Position numbers and translations under genes: made by a program. Shown one piece after another: positions 758 through 53,282 of a stretch of 64,000 bases of DNA. Position 1 is the stretch's first letter. Every line of letters starts with the position of its first letter. This DNA comes from Escherichia coli (GTDB lineage Bacteria > Pseudomonadota > Gammaproteobacteria > Enterobacterales > Enterobacteriaceae): NCBI RefSeq assembly GCF_003334385.1, contig NZ_QOWN01000018.1; one strand, written 5' to 3'. The notes under the pieces are model-generated. The model had not been told where the DNA came from and searched no databases. It saw nothing but the letters and a program-made list of their open reading frames with translations.

Positions 758-1810
758 ATGCCAGTGTTACACAACCGCATTTCCAACGACGCGCTAAAAG
801 CCAAAATGTTGGCTGAGAGCGAACCGCGAACCACCATTTCGTTTTACAAGTATTTCCACATCGCCGATCCTAAGGCGACCCGTGACGCTTTATATCAGCT
901 GTTTACCGCGCTGAATGTTTTTGGGCGAGTGTATCTGGCGCATGAGGGCATTAACGCGCAAATCAGCGTACCTGCGAGCAATGTTGAAACATTTCGCGCG
1001 CAGCTCTATGCCTTCGACCCGGCTTTAGAGGGTTTACGCCTGAATATCGCGTTGGATGATGACGGGAAATCCTTCTGGGTACTGCGCATGAAGGTACGCG
1101 ATCGCATTGTTGCCGACGGTATTGACGATCCTCACTTTGATGCCAGCAATGTTGGTGAGTATCTGCAAGCGGCGGAAGTGAACGCCATGCTTGACGATCC
1201 CGATGCACTATTTATCGACATGCGTAACCACTATGAGTATGAAGTGGGGCACTTTGAAAACGCGCTCGAAATTCTGGCAGATACCTTCCGTGAGCAGCTG
1301 CCAAAAGCAGTCGAGATGATGCAGGCACATAAAGATAAAAAAATCGTCATGTACTGCACCGGCGGCATTCGTTGTGAAAAGGCCAGTGCCTGGATGAAAC
1401 ATAACGGATTCAACAAAGTCTGGCATATCGAGGGCGGAATTATTGAATACGCCCGTAAGGCGCGCGAGCAGGGCTTGCCGGTGCGTTTTATTGGCAAAAA
1501 TTTTGTTTTTGACGAGCGGATGGGCGAACGTATATCGGATGAGATTATCGCGCATTGCCACCAGTGCGGCGCGCCGTGCGACAGCCATACCAACTGTAAA
1601 AATGATGGCTGCCACCTGCTGTTTATTCAGTGTCCAGTATGCGCGGAAAAATACAAAGGTTGTTGTAGTGAGATTTGCTGCGAAGAAAGCGCGTTACCGC
1701 CAGAAGAACAGCGACGCCGTCGGGCAGGACGTGAAAATGGCAATAAGATCTTTAATAAGTCTCGTGGACGTCTGAATACAACACTGTGCATTCCTGATCC
1801 AACAGAATAA
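758..1810 (+). CDS. trhO: tRNA uridine(34) hydroxylase, rhodanese-domain protein (YceA)
   Basis: ORF track 704..1810; start placed at internal ATG 758 ([16 protein letters not shown]...), 350 aa; Cys-rich C-terminus. Confidence 0.85.
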
Positions 1811-1818
1811 ATATCATT

Positions 1819-1839
1819 GCCGGATGCGTGCCATCCGGC
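1819..1839. terminator. Palindromic hairpin (GCCGGATG-N5-CATCCGGC) between convergent trhO and yceI
   Basis: 8-bp perfect inverted repeat read from sequence; weak flanking T/A tracts. Confidence 0.4.
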
Positions 1840-1851
1840 AACATTTCACGC

Positions 1852-2427
1852 TTACTTCTGCTGTACGCCTTCCACTGAAATAATCAGATCCACTTCCTGA
1901 GAAGCTGGACCTAAATCTGTCTTGATATTGAAGTCCTTGAGCTTAATTTTGCCTTCGGCCTCGAAGCCTGCACGTTTACCACCCCATGGGTCGTCGCCCT
2001 GACCAATTAATTTCGCTTCCAGCGTGACGGGTTTGGTTACGCCATTCAGCGTCAGATCGCCGGTAATATCCAGTTCGTCACCGTCTTTCTTCACGCTGGT
2101 GGAGGTGAATGTTGCCTGTGGATATTTTGCGGTATTGAGGAAATCTGCACTGCGAAGATGTTTATCGCGTTCGGCGTGATTAGTATCGACGCTGGTGGTG
2201 TTAATTGTCACATTCACTTTATCGGCAGCCGGATTTTTTTCGTCAAAGGTAAAAGTACCGTCGAAATCTTTAAAGGTGCCGTATAACCAGCTATAGCCAA
2301 GGTGCTGGATGCGGAAATTAACAAAGGCGTGCTGACCTTCTTTGTCAATTTTGTAATCGGCGGCAACCGCTGAACCGGCAGAGAACATCAGGGACGCGAA
2401 GGTTAAACCAAGCAGGCTTTTTTTCAT
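1852..2427 (-). CDS. yceI: YceI-family periplasmic polyisoprenoid-binding protein
   Basis: ORF track 191 aa with N-terminal signal peptide [22 protein letters not shown]. Confidence 0.9.
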
Positions 2428-2430
2428 TTT

Positions 2431-2997
2431 TTATACTCCATAGTCAGATGACGACTTTCCCAGCATGCGCTTCAGAGTGTCGTCTTTATCGATGAAATGA
2501 TGCTTCAGGGCCATAAATCCGTGCATAACGGACAGTACTACGACGCTCCACGCGAGCCAAAAATGCAGGGCACCGGCAAAGTCTGCCTGTGCGCCAGCGT
2601 CGGCAAGGGTCGCGGGGACGTCAAACCAGCCAAAAACGCTGATCGGTTTACCATCGGCAGTTGAGATCAGATAGCCGCTGATGCCGATGGCGAAAAGCAA
2701 TAGGTACAATGCGAGATGTCCAGCTCTTGCGGCAAGACGAGTCATGGGGGAATAACTCGGCAGCGGACCCGGCGGTGGAGATATGACACGCCACAGAACG
2801 CGAATAACCAGCCCCATCATTAACAAAATACCGATGCTTTTATGCAGTTCGGGTGCTTTGTGATACCAGCCATCGTAATAACTGAGCGTGACCATCCACA
2901 GACCTAAAGCAAACATGCCGTAGACAATAATTGCGCTTAGCCAATGGAAGGCCGCAGATATAACACCATAGCGTTCAGGGGTATTTGTGAATGACAT
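2431..2997 (-). CDS. yceJ: Cytochrome b561-family inner membrane protein
   Basis: ORF track 2431..3072; start placed at ATG 2997 (MSFTNTPERYGVISAAFHWL...), 188 aa, hydrophobic with conserved His. Confidence 0.85.
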   Translation of the reverse strand: MSFTNTPERYGVISAAFHWLSAIIVYGMFALGLWMVTLSYYDGWYHKAPELHKSIGILLMMGLVIRVLWRVISPPPGPLPSYSPMTRLAARAGHLALYLLLFAIGISGYLISTADGKPISVFGWFDVPATLADAGAQADFAGALHFWLAWSVVVLSVMHGFMALKHHFIDKDDTLKRMLGKSSSDYGV

Positions 2998-3257
2998 AAG
3001 TGCATCCAAAACGAATTTGCGAGAGAAAGAAAATGGCGTGTCGGAGAATGAATTGCAACACAAAAATAACAAATTGAATGATATTTATTTTTATTTCAAT
3101 AATTTTGAATTAATAATGAAAGAATCTTCATAAGTTTAGTGGGTTCAGCATCAGAGATGTCTGGTGAGTGCTGTAGAAGCAGGAATAATCTCATTCAATT
3201 TTTCACGCTAAATGAAAGGGAGATTAAATATTTGTCAGTTTATGTCAGTGCGGAAAA

Positions 3258-3371
3258 CTAAAAATAAAACACATAGATCAGATCCATAATTGCCAACAAT
3301 CCCCAGAGAAAAAGATAAAGCATCAGATGCTCGCGAATATTATTGATGAGATAGTGCAACAGCCGACGCAT
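3258..3371 (-). CDS. yceO: Small hydrophobic protein, 37 aa as read here
   Basis: Hand-translated minus [40 protein letters not shown], below the ORF-track length cut-off; in-frame stop immediately upstream of the ATG. Confidence 0.45.
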
Positions 3372-3418
3372 TAAATACTCCTGTAAAAACGGCCTCATTC
3401 TGGAGGCCGTAATGATGA

Positions 3419-4537
3419 TTATTGGAAGCGGGAAAGCCTGAATGGCGTCAAATCAAAATCGCTTTTTTTGTCTTGCGCAAAATCGGCAGCTATTTCCCCT
3501 AAAACTGACGCAAATTTAAAACCGTGCCCACTCAGGCCGGTAATGAGCAGTGTATTATCGTGGCCGGGTAGGGTATCGATAATAAAATCTTCGTCAGGCG
3601 AATTATCATAGGTGCAGGCAGCGCCGTACAGGCAGCAACCGATACCCGGCAATACATTGCGCAAGAACGGGAAGGCTTCTGACCCATCACTGGCCACTTC
3701 CGCAAACGGAACACGTTCATCCGCTGAATGGATAACCTGGCCTCCGTTATGTTTGCCAATCTTCAACGCGTCGTTTTCTGCCGGAAAACCATAATATTGA
3801 TCGCCATTGGGCAGTTCACCGGTAAACGCCGGGAATTTATTCTTCACGCTATAGCGGCCATCGGCCTGATACCAGGCAAATACTTTGCGTACGGGCTGGA
3901 CAGGCAGCTCCGGGAGCAGGTCTTTTACCCATGTTCCCGCGCAGACAATCGCTTTTTTCGCCTGATACTCACCGTCAGCCGTTTCAATAGTTACGCCATC
4001 ATCGTCATGACGAATTGCGGTGACCGGGCAGTTGAACAGTTGCGCACAGCCCGCTTCCTTCGCCAGTTGGATCCAGGTTTTAATCGCCAGTTCGCTGCGC
4101 AAAAAACCGGAATCAGTTTCAAATAAGCCGATGTAGTTGTCCGGGACGCGTATTTCCGGCCAGCGGGCCATAATCCCTTGCGCATCGAGCTTTTCAACGT
4201 TGAGTTGCCATTGTTCGGCGCTGTGGGCGACGTTGGCGAGAAATGTGGAATCAGCCGGGCCAAGGTTAATGACGCCAGAGCGTACAAAAATGGGATCTTC
4301 TTCGTTGTGGCGGGAGAGTTCATCCCACAGCGTTTGCGCGCGGAGGACCAGCGGGACATACTTTTCGCCTTCACCATAAGCATGGCGAATTAATCGCGTA
4401 TCGCCGTGGTGGCTGCCGTGTTGATGCGGTGGCATATGGGCGTCGGTCATTAGCACGTTTAAACCGGCGCGGGTTGCATAATACCCGGCGGCAGCGCCTA
4501 CGGAACCGCTGCCAATAATGATGAGATCGTATTTCAT
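3419..4537 (-). CDS. solA: N-methyl-L-tryptophan oxidase (FAD-dependent)
   Basis: ORF track 372 aa; N-terminal dinucleotide-binding motif [12 protein letters not shown]. Confidence 0.95.
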
Positions 4538-4607
4538 TTTTTTCTCTCTGCTCTCATGGTTTAAGCAGAGTAATTAACTGAATGCAGATATACAACCCAG
4601 AAATGGT

Positions 4608-4631
4608 AAAGGCACCGGTGAGGTGCCTTTT
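4608..4631. terminator. Hairpin GGCACC-N5-GGTGCC flanked by A and T tracts, downstream of bssS
   Basis: Inverted repeat with A-tract upstream and TTTT downstream on plus strand; could act in both directions. Confidence 0.45.
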
Positions 4632-4651
4632 GGGTGGATGGTCATGTCATG

Positions 4652-4906
4652 TTAATGACGCCGATACTCGTTTACCTGGAAATCACCGGATTCAATTTTG
4701 GCGATTCCTGCTTCTAATATCGAAATAAATTGTCTGGCAACATCAGTGGTTAACCAGAGCGTCTGACCAACTTCAGTCCCTTCCTGCTCGGACTTATTTG
4801 GGGTCTGGTAGTGCAAACGCAACATCAGCGCATCATAACTATCAACGGTGCTGATGTCCCACCCTACGAGCGGATGAGTCTGAATGACTTCATTATTTTT
4901 TTCCAT
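4652..4906 (-). CDS. bssS: Biofilm regulator BssS
   Basis: ORF track 4652..4909; start placed at second ATG (MEKNNEVIQTHPLVGW...), 84 aa. Confidence 0.85.
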   Translation of the reverse strand: MEKNNEVIQTHPLVGWDISTVDSYDALMLRLHYQTPNKSEQEGTEVGQTLWLTTDVARQFISILEAGIAKIESGDFQVNEYRRH

Positions 4907-5151
4907 CATGGCCCCCTAATTCGTGTTACTAGACAACGTTATTCGAGGTTCAATGCGTTTTTATCTGAAGCAACTTCAGTATACCAATAAGTAAGGGTAT
5001 TCACCGAATTTTTAAAGGGGGAAACAGATAAATTTCTGCTTTTAAGATTTATATGAACAATAAAACAGCATGTCATTCATATTTTTTTAGCATATTGTGC
5101 AATTATTTTGAGGAAGTGTAGAAATTTTGTACTCAAAATTCGTAAGTAAAA

Positions 5152-5183
5152 TAAAAAAGCCGGGGCGACCCGGCAAAAAAAAA
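5152..5183 (-). terminator. Rho-independent terminator of dinI
   Basis: Hairpin GCCGGG-GCGA-CCCGGC with A-tracts on both sides on plus strand (U-tract after the hairpin on the minus transcript), 11 nt past the dinI stop. Confidence 0.6.
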
Positions 5184-5193
5184 TCACTGCATA

Positions 5194-5439
5194 TTATTCG
5201 CTGACAAACCAGTCATCGGCGCTTTCCCACGTTTCCTGGAGAATTTCACTAATGCGCTGTTTATCTTCTTTTGTCGCGCCAATAACCGATAAATTATTCG
5301 CTGCGGCATAACGTACCGATACGTGGCCTTCATTATCAGGAAACGCATACTGAATACGGCGGGAAAGTTCGCCAGCCAGGGCGTCAATAGCCCCAGCTGG
5401 CAATGGAGAAGTTTTCGCTATGGTGACTTCAATTCGCAT
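5194..5439 (-). CDS. dinI: DNA damage-inducible protein I
   Basis: 81-aa frame MRIEVTIAKTSPLPAGAIDALAGELSRR... inside ORF 5194..5571; SD AGGGGG upstream. Confidence 0.9.
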   Translation of the reverse strand: MRIEVTIAKTSPLPAGAIDALAGELSRRIQYAFPDNEGHVSVRYAAANNLSVIGATKEDKQRISEILQETWESADDWFVSE

Positions 5440-52151: not shown

Positions 52152-52784
52152 TTATTTCACCAGTTCGGGCCATAAACGCAAAGTCGTTCCGGCAATCTGC
52201 ATCAGTTTTTCCAGCGATGCACCTTCGCGTGCGCTGATCGACATCCCCTGAATAATACAATTAAGGAATTCTGCCAGATGTGTCACGTCACAGTGGGGCG
52301 GGATTTCCCCGCGCGCTTGTCGTTGACATAAAAACTGCTGCAAAGTGCGCTCTTGCATCGCATGGCGTGATTTCAACGTATTGGCGATATCTCCTGAATC
52401 TGGGGAGAGGGTGGTGCAGTTGTTGATCATGAAGCAGCCTGCCGGGGTGTCTTTGCTGGTAAAGCAGTTGGCGATGGCAGCAAAATAGTCAGCCAGCGCA
52501 GACTCCACGCTTTTCTCTTCACAAAACAGCTGTGCTTCATGCTTAGCGGCAAAACGATCGATATAGCGGTCGAGAACGGCACGAAATAACCCCTCTTTGT
52601 TGGTAAATTCCGCGTATAGCGTGGGCGCTTTGGCTCCGGTCGCTTCGACGAGGTCCGCAAGAGAAGTCGCTTCATAACCGTGTTGCCAGAACAATTTCAT
52701 GGCCTTATCAAGCGCGGCATCCCTGTCGAACACTTTTGGGCGGCCACGGCTTTTTTTTACACATTGTGTTGAGTCAGTTGCCAT
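52152..52784 (-). CDS. comR: TetR-family copper-responsive repressor ComR (YcfQ)
   Basis: ORF track 52152..52862; start placed at ATG 52784 (MATDSTQCVKKSRGRPKVFDRDAALDKAMKLF..., TetR HTH), 210 aa. Confidence 0.85.
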   Translation of the reverse strand: MATDSTQCVKKSRGRPKVFDRDAALDKAMKLFWQHGYEATSLADLVEATGAKAPTLYAEFTNKEGLFRAVLDRYIDRFAAKHEAQLFCEEKSVESALADYFAAIANCFTSKDTPAGCFMINNCTTLSPDSGDIANTLKSRHAMQERTLQQFLCQRQARGEIPPHCDVTHLAEFLNCIIQGMSISAREGASLEKLMQIAGTTLRLWPELVK

Positions 52785-52939
52785 GATGCCGTTGTACCTG
52801 GTGACTGTGAATGAAAGGTTATTATAAAAATAATCACCTCCGTTCACCAGTCCAGATCCCATAAAAATAATTGCTTTCTATTTAACTGAAATTTAAAGAT
52901 TTTTAAATTAATTAATGATTGTTATAAAAAATATCTTGT

Positions 52940-52957
52940 ATGTGATCCAGATCACAT
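52940..52957. promoter_or_regulatory. Operator-like perfect inverted repeat upstream of bhsA (candidate ComR site)
   Basis: ATGTGATC-CA-GATCACAT, 8-bp perfect arms with 2-bp spacer, 68 bp upstream of the bhsA ATG in an AT-rich divergent region. Confidence 0.5.
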
Positions 52958-53024
52958 CTATCATTTAGTTATCGATCGTTAAGTAATTGCTTGCGACGTC
53001 ATTCATCTGCATAAGGCCACTATT

Positions 53025-53282
53025 ATGAAAAACGTAAAAACCCTCATCGCTGCGGCGATTTTAAGCTCCATGTCATTTGCCAGCTTTGCGGCTGTCGAAG
53101 TTCAGTCAACGCCAGAAGGCCAACAAAAAGTCGGTACAATCAGTGCTAACGCGGGGACAAATCTGGGATCGCTGGAAGAGCAGCTGGCGCAAAAAGCGGA
53201 TGAGATGGGCGCAAAATCTTTCCGTATTACTTCTGTAACCGGTCCGAATACCCTCCATGGAACAGCAGTAATTTATAAATAA
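53025..53282 (+). CDS. bhsA: Multiple-stress-resistance outer-membrane protein BhsA (YcfR/ComC)
   Basis: ORF track 85 aa with signal peptide MKNVKTLIAAAILSSMSFASFA. Confidence 0.9.
   Translation: MKNVKTLIAAAILSSMSFASFAAVEVQSTPEGQQKVGTISANAGTNLGSLEEQLAQKADEMGAKSFRITSVTGPNTLHGTAVIYK

Follow-up and report, generated by a model that had tools for sequence, protein, structure and literature searches.

The yceJ-yceI operon of Escherichia coli, an enterobacterial version of the lcoA-bcnA cytochrome-lipocalin system

The locus described here is the ordinary yceJ-yceI operon of E. coli, which represents the lcoA-bcnA system in enterobacteria, and belongs to the core genome of the species (found in 5425 of 5426 complete genomes). 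By analogy with related systems, we consider it fairly probable (about 0.6) that YceJ and YceI form a stress-driven pair of the lcoA-bcnA type, with an electron relay between the two proteins that acts against peroxidation of envelope lipids.

The pairing, the idea for its mechanism and the genomic evidence had all been published before. In 2022, Naguib et al. (PLoS Biol, PMC9113575) named the pair lcoA-bcnA, listed Escherichia among the bacteria with the two-gene operon and noted gene fusions. The two genes are co-transcribed, and Burkholderia mutants have increased lipid peroxidation (PMC9113575). An earlier note on this DNA called the pairing poorly characterised; this holds for the direct biochemistry and for the E. 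coli pair itself, but not for the pairing, synteny, fusions and lipid-peroxidation phenotype, all published in 2022 (PMC9113575). Minor new points concern the yceO start, a probable solA terminator and candidate promoter and operator elements of yceJ-yceI, and are of value for annotation only.

Gene organization and predicted products

Both the list of open reading frames and the sequence place yceJ, yceI and the small ORF yceO on the minus strand of the 64-kb stretch of DNA that was analysed (the window). The gene yceJ (2431-2997, annotated b1057) encodes a cytochrome b561-type inner-membrane protein of 188 aa, counted from the ATG at 2997. A 213-aa version with a TTG start (2431-3072) was ruled out, as conservation begins at the ATG at 2997. 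The gene yceI (1852-2427, annotated yceI, b1056) encodes a periplasmic YceI-family lipocalin of 191 aa, and lies just outside the segment singled out earlier (2431-3418), which covers yceJ, the spacer upstream of it and yceO.

Exactly 3 nt separate the yceJ stop codon (2433-2431) from the yceI ATG (2427-2425), in the arrangement TAA-AAA-ATG; the gap claimed beforehand thus agrees with both the ORF list and the sequence. A GGAG Shine-Dalgarno sequence for yceI was identified 8 nt before its ATG, within the 3' end of yceJ. Given the 3-nt gap and the location of this ribosome-binding site inside yceJ, the two genes are probably translationally coupled. The end of the operon is marked by a terminator-like hairpin (1815-1843, minus strand) that follows yceI and sits between the stop codons of the convergent genes yceI (1852) and trhO (1810). 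It has a 12-bp stem with 6 GC pairs and a T-rich tail. The generic promoter and terminator scan that caught this hairpin returned counts at the level of shuffled sequence, and missed the solA hairpin described below.

YceJ belongs to the cytochrome b561-type proteins of the inner membrane, with four helices, two predicted haems and cytoplasmic N- and C-termini. It matches Pfam PF01292 (Ni_hydr_CYTB) with E=5.4e-30, residues 9-180 aligning to model positions 1-178 of 179, and its AF2 model has four long helices, at residues 12-36, 47-72, 84-112 and 135-168. Four histidines, H18, H52, H145 and H159, are invariant in 69 homologues, and the haem-ligand histidines are also invariant in natural fusions of the two proteins. 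We take these four residues to be the bis-His haem ligands, as established for the family (FdnI, CybB). Helices 1 and 2 carry one of them each, and helix 4 carries the other two, 14 residues apart.

YceJ is orthologous to lcoA and paralogous to CybB, the superoxide:ubiquinone oxidoreductase of E. coli. It resembles CybB in Pfam family (PF01292), length, four-helix fold and conserved histidines, but the match to the CybB superoxide oxidase structure (PDB 5OC0) is distant (phmmer, E=1.5e-14) and cybB is unlinked to a YceI gene. Assignment of YceJ as CybB itself was ruled out by its score against the NCBIfam cybB equivalog NF008566, which at 63.7 bits is below the cut-off of 170.

YceI carries an N-terminal signal peptide and is an exported periplasmic eight-stranded lipocalin-like barrel, a putative holder of polyisoprenoid or ubiquinone-8. 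This identification was accompanied by matches to Pfam PF04264 (E=3e-49), to the NCBIfam equivalog NF002994 (345 bits, cut-off 232), to the full length of the PDB 1Y0G chain (E=2e-126, residues 1-191 on 1-191) and to the close homologue PA0423 (E=4e-96). Crystal structures of YceI-family proteins contain bound polyisoprenoid or UQ8 (PMC9113575). No structural difference separates the YceI of the window from the polyisoprenoid-binding lipocalins YceI, TT1927b, PA0423 (PasP) and HP1286 (1Y0G, 1WUB, 7BWL and 3HPE).

As in the LcoA-BcnA(-BcnB) system of Burkholderia cenocepacia, the b561 gene is immediately upstream of, and co-oriented with, the gene for the YceI-family lipocalin. Unlike that system, E. 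coli has no third gene (bcnB), and its YceI is nearer in sequence to BcnB (5IXG, E=5e-19) than to BcnA (5IXH, E=8e-9), so that one-to-one orthology of YceI and BcnA is not clean. The phenotypes of LcoA-BcnA all come from Burkholderia, and the rise in lipid peroxidation upon loss was reported for B. cenocepacia only (PMC9113575).

Conservation of the pair and natural fusions

The association of yceJ with yceI extends well outside Enterobacteriaceae. In all 78 testable loci, the yceJ homologue is directly followed by a co-oriented yceI, the gap ranging from -17 to +71 nt. These loci span five Enterobacterales families plus Pseudomonas and Stutzerimonas; all 80 loci returned by the search are at least 54% identical, which confines the sample to Enterobacterales and Pseudomonadaceae. 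The query for this search was cut to 12 sequences, as the 69-sequence alignment was too diverse. More distant linkage of b561 and YceI genes was detected in Vibrio, a Klebsiella plasmid, Legionella, Rhizobium, Methylobacterium and one metagenome-assembled genome. It came from tblastn searches against plasmids and chromids; look-ups of exact proteins mostly led to contigs too short to contain neighbours. No YceI gene was found within 2.5 kb of b561 homologues of at most 35% identity in Azospirillum, Paraburkholderia, Acinetobacter, Cupriavidus, Sphingopyxis and Agrobacterium, and a search for a sequence motif separating YceI-linked from unlinked b561 cytochromes found none.

The two domains also occur in a single polypeptide. 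Natural b561-YceI fusions form a large family (hundreds of members): PF01292 and PF04264 are joined in 4 of the best 150 cluster representatives at 50% identity, and occur together in 118 of 120 homologues of one fusion, P0228. The same alpha-proteobacterial fusions, recovered independently here, are reported in the LcoA-BcnA paper (PMC9113575). The earlier note had proposed that absence of conserved synteny beyond Enterobacteriaceae would count against the pairing; instead, synteny is kept in all 78 loci, including those of four other Enterobacterales families and of Pseudomonas and Stutzerimonas, and continues into Vibrio, Legionella, Rhizobium and Methylobacterium. Its suggestion of a membrane redox protein paired with a periplasmic lipid or quinone carrier is supported by this cross-family synteny and by the natural fusions.

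A predicted interface between the two proteins is weakly supported by structural models. The AF2 model of the natural fusion P0228 has a pLDDT of 90 and a pTM of 0.77, and a pseudo-fusion of E. coli YceJ and YceI reaches a pTM of 0.63. The domains match BcnA (5IXH, TMt 0.95) and CybB (5OC0, TMt 0.88). The P0228 domain arrangement is common to approximately 18 of 45 fusion models in AFDB (about 40%) at TMq of at least 0.62, and over half of the AFDB fusions differ from it. The arrangement in the E. coli pseudo-fusion is unlike those of the AFDB natural fusions (TMq about 0.45, rmsd 10-24 A). For an interface of the kind raised earlier, the domain arrangements are inconsistent across models.

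The upstream region and yceO

Between the yceJ ATG and the yceO stop codon lies an AT-rich intergenic spacer of 260 bp (2998-3257) that includes the regulatory region of yceJ-yceI. Its GC content is 0.319, compared with a window mean of 0.517 (sd 0.050), and values of 0.32 or below occur at just 3 places in the 64 kb (200-nt windows); the AT-rich spacer described beforehand is therefore confirmed in length and composition. No known RNA family was detected in it by an Rfam scan of 1700-4700 at a permissive threshold, which returned two matches at chance level. An alignment of 15 species revealed conserved islands within the otherwise poorly conserved spacer.

We identified a candidate proximal yceJ promoter (3031-3058, minus strand) with the sequence TTGCAA-N14-CGCCATTT, which begins 61 nt upstream of the yceJ ATG and is sigma-32-like. 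Its distance from yceJ is unchanged in 11 of the 14 related Enterobacteriaceae loci (L003-L016), as compared with the window. The sigma-32 consensus is TTGAAA ... CCCCATTT; promoters recognized by sigma-32 (RpoH) have a -35 element TTGAAA and a -10 element CCCCATNT about 12-15 nt apart. The match to this consensus makes the element a candidate that would fit the reported heat induction of yceJ, which has been called a heat-shock gene (PMC10607373). Induction has been reported upon heat shock, Cpx activation and Lol inhibition (PMC10607373, PMC5105897), yceJ-yceI are included in a list of the CpxR regulon (PMC2731931), and yceJ overexpression is among the results of an HOCl-resistance screen (PMC8228696). 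In P. aeruginosa, Cpx induces a second pair of b561 and lipocalin genes, PA3575-PA3576 (PMC12802237). A regular-expression search for the CpxR box GTAAA-N5-GTAAA, confined to N5 spacing, found it upstream of yceJ in 0 of 80 loci; as published P. aeruginosa CpxR sites have N6 spacing, its absence from the Pseudomonas loci is uninformative.

A second element, the tandem repeat TGACATAAACTGACA (3233-3247, minus strand; TGACA-N5-TGACA, period 10), lies about 250 nt upstream of yceJ. The exact motif has one match in the 64-kb window, and copies with one mismatch occur at chance level. In the window and 18 further loci, the form TGAC-N6-TGAC lies 197-339 nt ahead of yceJ; these loci include those of Serratia, Pantoea and Mixta, in which yceO is absent or non-adjacent. 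Judged by its sequence, the repeat may be either the -35 region of a distal promoter (it reads TTGACA in most species) or a putative regulator site. It resembles a Pho box, but was not assigned as one, given a period of 10 versus 11. Overall, control of yceJ-yceI may be exerted from this spacer, via the sigma-32-like proximal promoter and the distal TGACA tandem element. Expression is stress-driven, and the inducers reported for E. coli, which are heat (probably through sigma-32), Cpx, alkaline pH, osmotic shock and Lol inhibition, differ from those of LcoA-BcnA (paraquat and antibiotics).

Upstream of the spacer is yceO (3258-3371, minus strand), which encodes a small membrane protein of the DUF2770 family. 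The earlier note's 37-aa form corresponds to these coordinates, to the PGAP length and to a conserved start; the K-12 record gives 46 aa (3258-3398). The 37-aa form is preceded by an AGGAG Shine-Dalgarno sequence (3378-3382) 6 nt before its ATG, and consists of a 15-residue stretch followed by a single C-terminal hydrophobic helix. The match to Pfam DUF2770 (PF10968, E=3e-22) covers residues 10-45 of the 46-aa form. The MRR start is kept in the 13 loci in which the start was checked, and in L004 a GTG aligns with it. Orthologues of 37-38 aa occur in the window and 14 related loci, according to an HMM run on the fetched loci; a database search with YceO, based on a word index, gave Escherichia and Shigella only, and the wider distribution comes from the HMM. 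Where synonymous sites are unsaturated, dN/dS is about 0.1-0.35, indicating purifying selection.

The ATG of the 46-aa form (3396-3398) is not conserved and falls inside a hairpin located immediately after the solA stop codon (3389-3410, minus strand; ACGGCCTC-CAGAAT-GAGGCCGT, then TTTTT). In each of the 15 species, RNAfold folds this position into a GC-rich hairpin, with stem sequences that differ between genera, and its features suggest that it is probably the intrinsic terminator of solA. The conserved and better-supported YceO protein is the 37-aa form rather than that of 46 aa.

YceO is a separate, validated and very weakly expressed membrane protein gene product, and its gene is not an obligate partner of the pair. 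Chromosomally encoded YceO-SPA has been seen by immunoblot (PMC12529367). In being single-pass, under 50 aa and detected by chromosomal SPA-tagging, it resembles small E. coli membrane proteins validated by the Storz laboratory, such as CydX and MgtS. It could be imagined that YceO serves YceJ as a dedicated small subunit or as a regulator, in the way that CydX serves cytochrome bd, with yceO-yceJ-yceI acting as one unit. In the window and the 14 related Enterobacteriaceae loci examined, the gene precedes yceJ in the same orientation at 260 bp, the interval between the two showed no terminator-like hairpin, and the product is a single-pass membrane protein under purifying selection. However, yceJ-yceI occur without a detectable yceO in most Enterobacterales families, Pseudomonas, Vibrio and elsewhere, a yceO-like ORF in Serratia is parted from yceJ by an oppositely oriented gene, and YceO is reported to be acid-stress-related and present at extremely low levels. 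We regard such a subunit as extremely improbable. Only slightly better, and still highly improbable, are the odds that YceO is an accessory or regulator of YceJ specific to Enterobacteriaceae, or that solA-yceO-yceJ-yceI constitute one stress module under a regulator that binds the TGACA element.

Function of the pair

In the interpretation we prefer, electrons would pass by way of YceJ between the quinone pool of the membrane and a quinone or lipid on periplasmic YceI, and lipid peroxyl radicals, or other reactive species of the envelope, could then be quenched by the pair. We infer this mechanism from the Burkholderia work and from CybB. For lcoA-bcnA, the mechanism was called presumptive by the authors of the 2022 study (PMC9113575).

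Alternatively, YceJ and YceI could be co-expressed and mechanistically independent, sharing an operon only since both serve the envelope stress response. YceJ would then work by itself in the membrane, either as a superoxide:ubiquinone oxidoreductase like CybB or as a ferric reductase, and YceI would by itself scavenge hydrophobic toxins, antibiotics or peroxidised lipids, in the periplasm or after secretion. Such independence is consistent with the clear paralogy of YceJ and CybB and with the weak, inconsistent predicted interface. YceI-family genes are monocistronic in several taxa (e.g., Klebsiella, Acinetobacter and Neisseria), BcnA alone sequesters antibiotics, and the 2022 authors explicitly kept the option that the proteins act independently (all PMC9113575). 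Yet the large family of fusions that tether the lipocalin to the cytochrome argues that physical proximity is functional, and adjacency of the genes is tight and near-universal across orders; we consider separate roles rather unlikely. More doubtful is a pair devoted to trafficking of lipids or quinones, in which YceI ferries ubiquinone-8 or octaprenyl lipids and YceJ serves mainly as a docking and loading site in the membrane, with transport more important than redox chemistry. This possibility draws on the polyisoprenoid or UQ8 found in YceI-family crystals, the proposal that a Neisseria homologue is a UQ8 transporter (PMC9113575), and the naming of several solved homologues as polyisoprenoid-binding proteins. 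Overexpression of yceJ restores LpxC and LPS in lapC mutants, a hint of a link to envelope lipids (PMC10607373). Against a role mainly in transport, the haem-ligand histidines are all invariant in YceI-linked cytochromes and in fusions, which suggests that redox activity is under selection.

If the electron relay between YceJ and YceI operates as proposed, Gram-negative bacteria would have a redox relay that faces the periplasm and is dedicated to repairing or preventing oxidative damage in the lipids of the envelope. Such a relay would bear on tolerance to bactericidal antibiotics and oxidants.

Layout of the yceJ-yceI operon and its products

The window is chromosomal E. coli DNA; its positions 1800-3500 match 5425 of the 5426 complete genomes of the species, in which yceJ-yceI is a core operon. 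An annotated copy with 100% identity carries trhO, yceI, yceJ, a gene for a YceO family protein and solA, and the K-12 record (b1055-b1059) has the same order. The ORF list places yceI at 1852-2427, yceJ at 2431-2997 and the end of yceO at 3258, all on the minus strand. As claimed in the earlier note, the window sequence has 3 nt between the yceJ stop and the yceI ATG. The Shine-Dalgarno GGAG of yceI sits within the 3' end of yceJ. The observation in the note is confirmed; only the range given there, 2431-3418, leaves out yceI, which lies just outside. A terminator-like hairpin between yceI and the convergent trhO (1815-1843) closes the operon. In some E. coli strains an IS3-family insertion separates trhO and yceI (L099, the CUPF12 locus, hit H2; also hits H3 and H4) and alters the annotated yceI 3' end (594 bp versus 576 bp).

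YceJ is a prokaryotic cytochrome b561 (PF01292, E=5e-30) and a relative of CybB, the superoxide oxidase solved as 5OC0 (E=1.5e-14). Its score against the NCBIfam cybB equivalog, 63.7 bits, is far under the cut-off of 170, so YceJ is a CybB paralogue. Residues H18, H52, H145 and H159 are invariant across 69 diverse homologues, and the AF2 model has four long helices. YceI belongs to PF04264 and aligns full-length with the crystallised 1Y0G chain, and YceO is a DUF2770 protein. The mechanical ORF list also contains a 213-aa TTG-start extension of yceJ (2431-3072, minus strand), and public protein sets include extended forms of 213-234 aa; one is UniProt B1LIV4, which bears the name 'Nickel-dependent hydrogenase b-type cytochrome subunit'. 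We rejected these as over-extended and misnamed because conservation across species begins at the ATG at 2997.

Linkage and fusion of cytochrome b561 and lipocalin

The yceJ-yceI pairing is a published system, re-derived here in E. coli. The names lcoA, for the cytochrome gene, and bcnA, for that of the lipocalin, come from Naguib et al. 2022 (PMC9113575), who reported both conserved lcoA-bcnA linkage, including in Escherichia, Enterobacter, Proteus and Pseudomonas, and b561-lipocalin fusions in alpha-proteobacteria. In B. cenocepacia the two genes are co-transcribed and mutants have raised lipid peroxidation (PMC9113575). The proposal is that LcoA re-reduces BcnA-bound ubiquinone-8, which quenches lipid peroxyl radicals, a mechanism that the authors themselves call presumptive (PMC9113575). 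A second b561-lipocalin pair, the Cpx-induced PA3575-PA3576, is known from P. aeruginosa (PMC12802237). In E. coli, yceJ and yceI are CpxR regulon members and YceI is induced by high pH and osmotic shock (PMC2731931); heat shock, Cpx and Lol inhibition all induce yceJ, whose overexpression suppresses lapC temperature sensitivity (PMC10607373, PMC5105897). Both yceJ and solA are listed among genes that confer HOCl resistance when overexpressed (PMC8228696). The latter (3419-4537) also keeps its place upstream in several families of Enterobacterales.

An alignment of YceJ homologues searched against 100,044 species-representative genomes returned 80 loci, from Pseudomonas, Stutzerimonas and five Enterobacterales families (among them Citrobacter, Enterobacter, Serratia, Rahnella, Pantoea, Pectobacterium, Dickeya, Photorhabdus, Xenorhabdus, Proteus and Arsenophonus). 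In 78 of the 80, yceI is the next gene after yceJ in the same orientation, at a distance of -17 to +71 nt; in the remaining two the contig ends before the yceI position can be read. For wider reach, twelve regions found by tblastn against plasmids and chromids were read and scored with our own HMMs. Linkage was present in Vibrio, a Klebsiella plasmid, Legionella, Rhizobium rhizogenes, Methylobacterium and one metagenome-assembled genome. Beyond Enterobacteriaceae the pair is kept in other Enterobacterales families, Pseudomonas, Vibrio, Legionella, Rhizobium and Methylobacterium. No YceI gene was found within 2.5 kb of b561 homologues at <=35% identity in the regions read (Azospirillum, Paraburkholderia, Acinetobacter, Cupriavidus, Sphingopyxis and Agrobacterium); the linkage therefore does not extend to more distant b561 subfamilies.

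Several loci depart from the simple pair. The order is YceI-cytochrome b-YceI in Legionella and Rhizobium rhizogenes (plasmid loci L087 and L088), a three-gene arrangement also found in Methylobacterium (L095). Downstream on the Legionella plasmid, genes for CcdA and for members of the thioredoxin and carboxymuconolactone-decarboxylase families give a setting of thiol and redox stress. On a Cronobacter dublinensis plasmid (L096), the genes after a more distant b561 gene encode an RNA polymerase sigma factor and a hypothetical protein, and YceI is encoded on the other strand at a distance of 1.3 kb. The arrangement may represent a version of the pair under sigma-factor control. In the Arsenophonus endosymbiont of Aleurodicus (L043, 5600-6147), yceI matches fall in two reading frames beside a long T-run, probably marking a frameshifted pseudogene in a reduced genome; yceJ there looks intact.

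Fusions of the two domains make up four of the best 150 50%-identity representatives, and among 120 homologues listed for one fusion, 118 have both Pfam domains; most come from Alphaproteobacteria. Read from sequence, a hydrophobic, signal-peptide-like segment joins the cytochrome's cytoplasmic C-terminus to the lipocalin. By its position this linker could serve as a fifth transmembrane segment, which would make the lipocalin periplasmic and keep it attached to the cytochrome; in the AF2 model it has low confidence and no helix. The fusion lipocalin domains are BcnA-like, in contrast to E. coli YceI, which scores better against the further Burkholderia lipocalin BcnB (5IXG) than against BcnA (5IXH).

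A PDB search returned no entry with both b561 and YceI domains, and a putative interface was modelled by single-chain AF2. For the natural fusion P0228, modelled from a 112-sequence alignment, pLDDT was 90.2 and pTM 0.77, the latter above what two freely hinged halves would be expected to give; its domain arrangement is common to ~18 of 45 full-length AFDB fusion models (TMq 0.62-0.88). For an E. coli YceJ+YceI pseudo-fusion, whose alignment combined paired sequences with natural fusions, pLDDT was 89.5 but pTM only 0.63, and its superposition on AFDB fusions takes in a single domain (TMq ~0.45). The earlier note had proposed that a membrane redox protein works with a periplasmic lipid or quinone carrier; conserved adjacency, fusions and the published system support this functional pairing.

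Candidate regulatory elements and yceO upstream of yceJ

An AT-rich spacer of 260 bp upstream of yceJ had been claimed, and it measures exactly that (2998-3257; GC 0.319 versus a window mean of 0.517). GC of <=0.32 in 200-nt windows is reached at only three places in the 64 kb, the spacer included; the other two are 4951-5201, the bssS-dinI intergenic region, and 52751-53051. The spacer matched no Rfam family and shows two conserved islands on a poorly conserved background.

A candidate promoter, TTGCAA-N14-CGCCATTT (3058-3031, minus strand), begins 61 nt before the yceJ ATG; the window and 11 of 14 related Enterobacteriaceae loci share it. It resembles the sigma-32 consensus, and as a putative promoter of this type fits the reported heat induction of yceJ.

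Some 250 nt upstream of yceJ is a tandem TGACA-N5-TGACA with a period of 10 (3247-3233, minus strand). The window and 18 further loci (among L003-L021 and L035), ranging from Escherichia to Serratia, Pantoea and Mixta, have the form TGAC-N6-TGAC at 197-339 nt before yceJ. Because the last three keep the element with yceO absent or non-adjacent, it belongs to yceJ and not to yceO. Each repeat is TTGACA in most species, which matches the -35 hexamer perfectly, and ~17 nt downstream is a weak -10 resembling AATTT. The tandem could be the -35 region of a distal promoter or the target of a response regulator that binds in tandem; it is similar to a Pho box, but its period is one base shorter. The motif is unenriched elsewhere within the 64-kb window. 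No CpxR box (GTAAA-N5-GTAAA spacing) was found upstream of yceJ in the 80 loci.

Chromosomal YceO-SPA has been seen by immunoblot at very low level (PMC12529367), so yceO is a real gene. We aligned the region from the solA stop to the yceJ start across 15 sequences, the window plus 14 related loci of Enterobacteriaceae. The 37-aa form starts at an ATG (3369-3371), preceded in the window by AGGAG at 6 nt, that is kept at the aligned position in 14 of 15 sequences (GTG in L004), and the MRR N-terminus was confirmed in the 13 related loci checked. The ATG of the 46-aa K-12 form (3396-3398) is unconserved in other genera and falls within a GC-rich hairpin and T-run straight after the solA stop (3385-3412, minus strand). 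The hairpin is predicted in all 15 species with differing stem sequences, the pattern expected of an intrinsic terminator, and it probably serves as the terminator of solA. Purifying selection acts on the 37-aa ORF (dN/dS ~0.1-0.35 where estimable), and the Pfam DUF2770 model and PGAP both correspond to it; the K-12 annotation is probably 9 codons too long. Searching the fetched loci with our own HMM, we found weaker YceO-like ORFs in Serratia, with an oppositely oriented gene between ORF and yceJ, and none in the other families, Pseudomonas or Vibrio; YceO is therefore not an obligate partner of the YceJ-YceI pair.

What this analysis adds to the published system is three small points of annotation and regulation.
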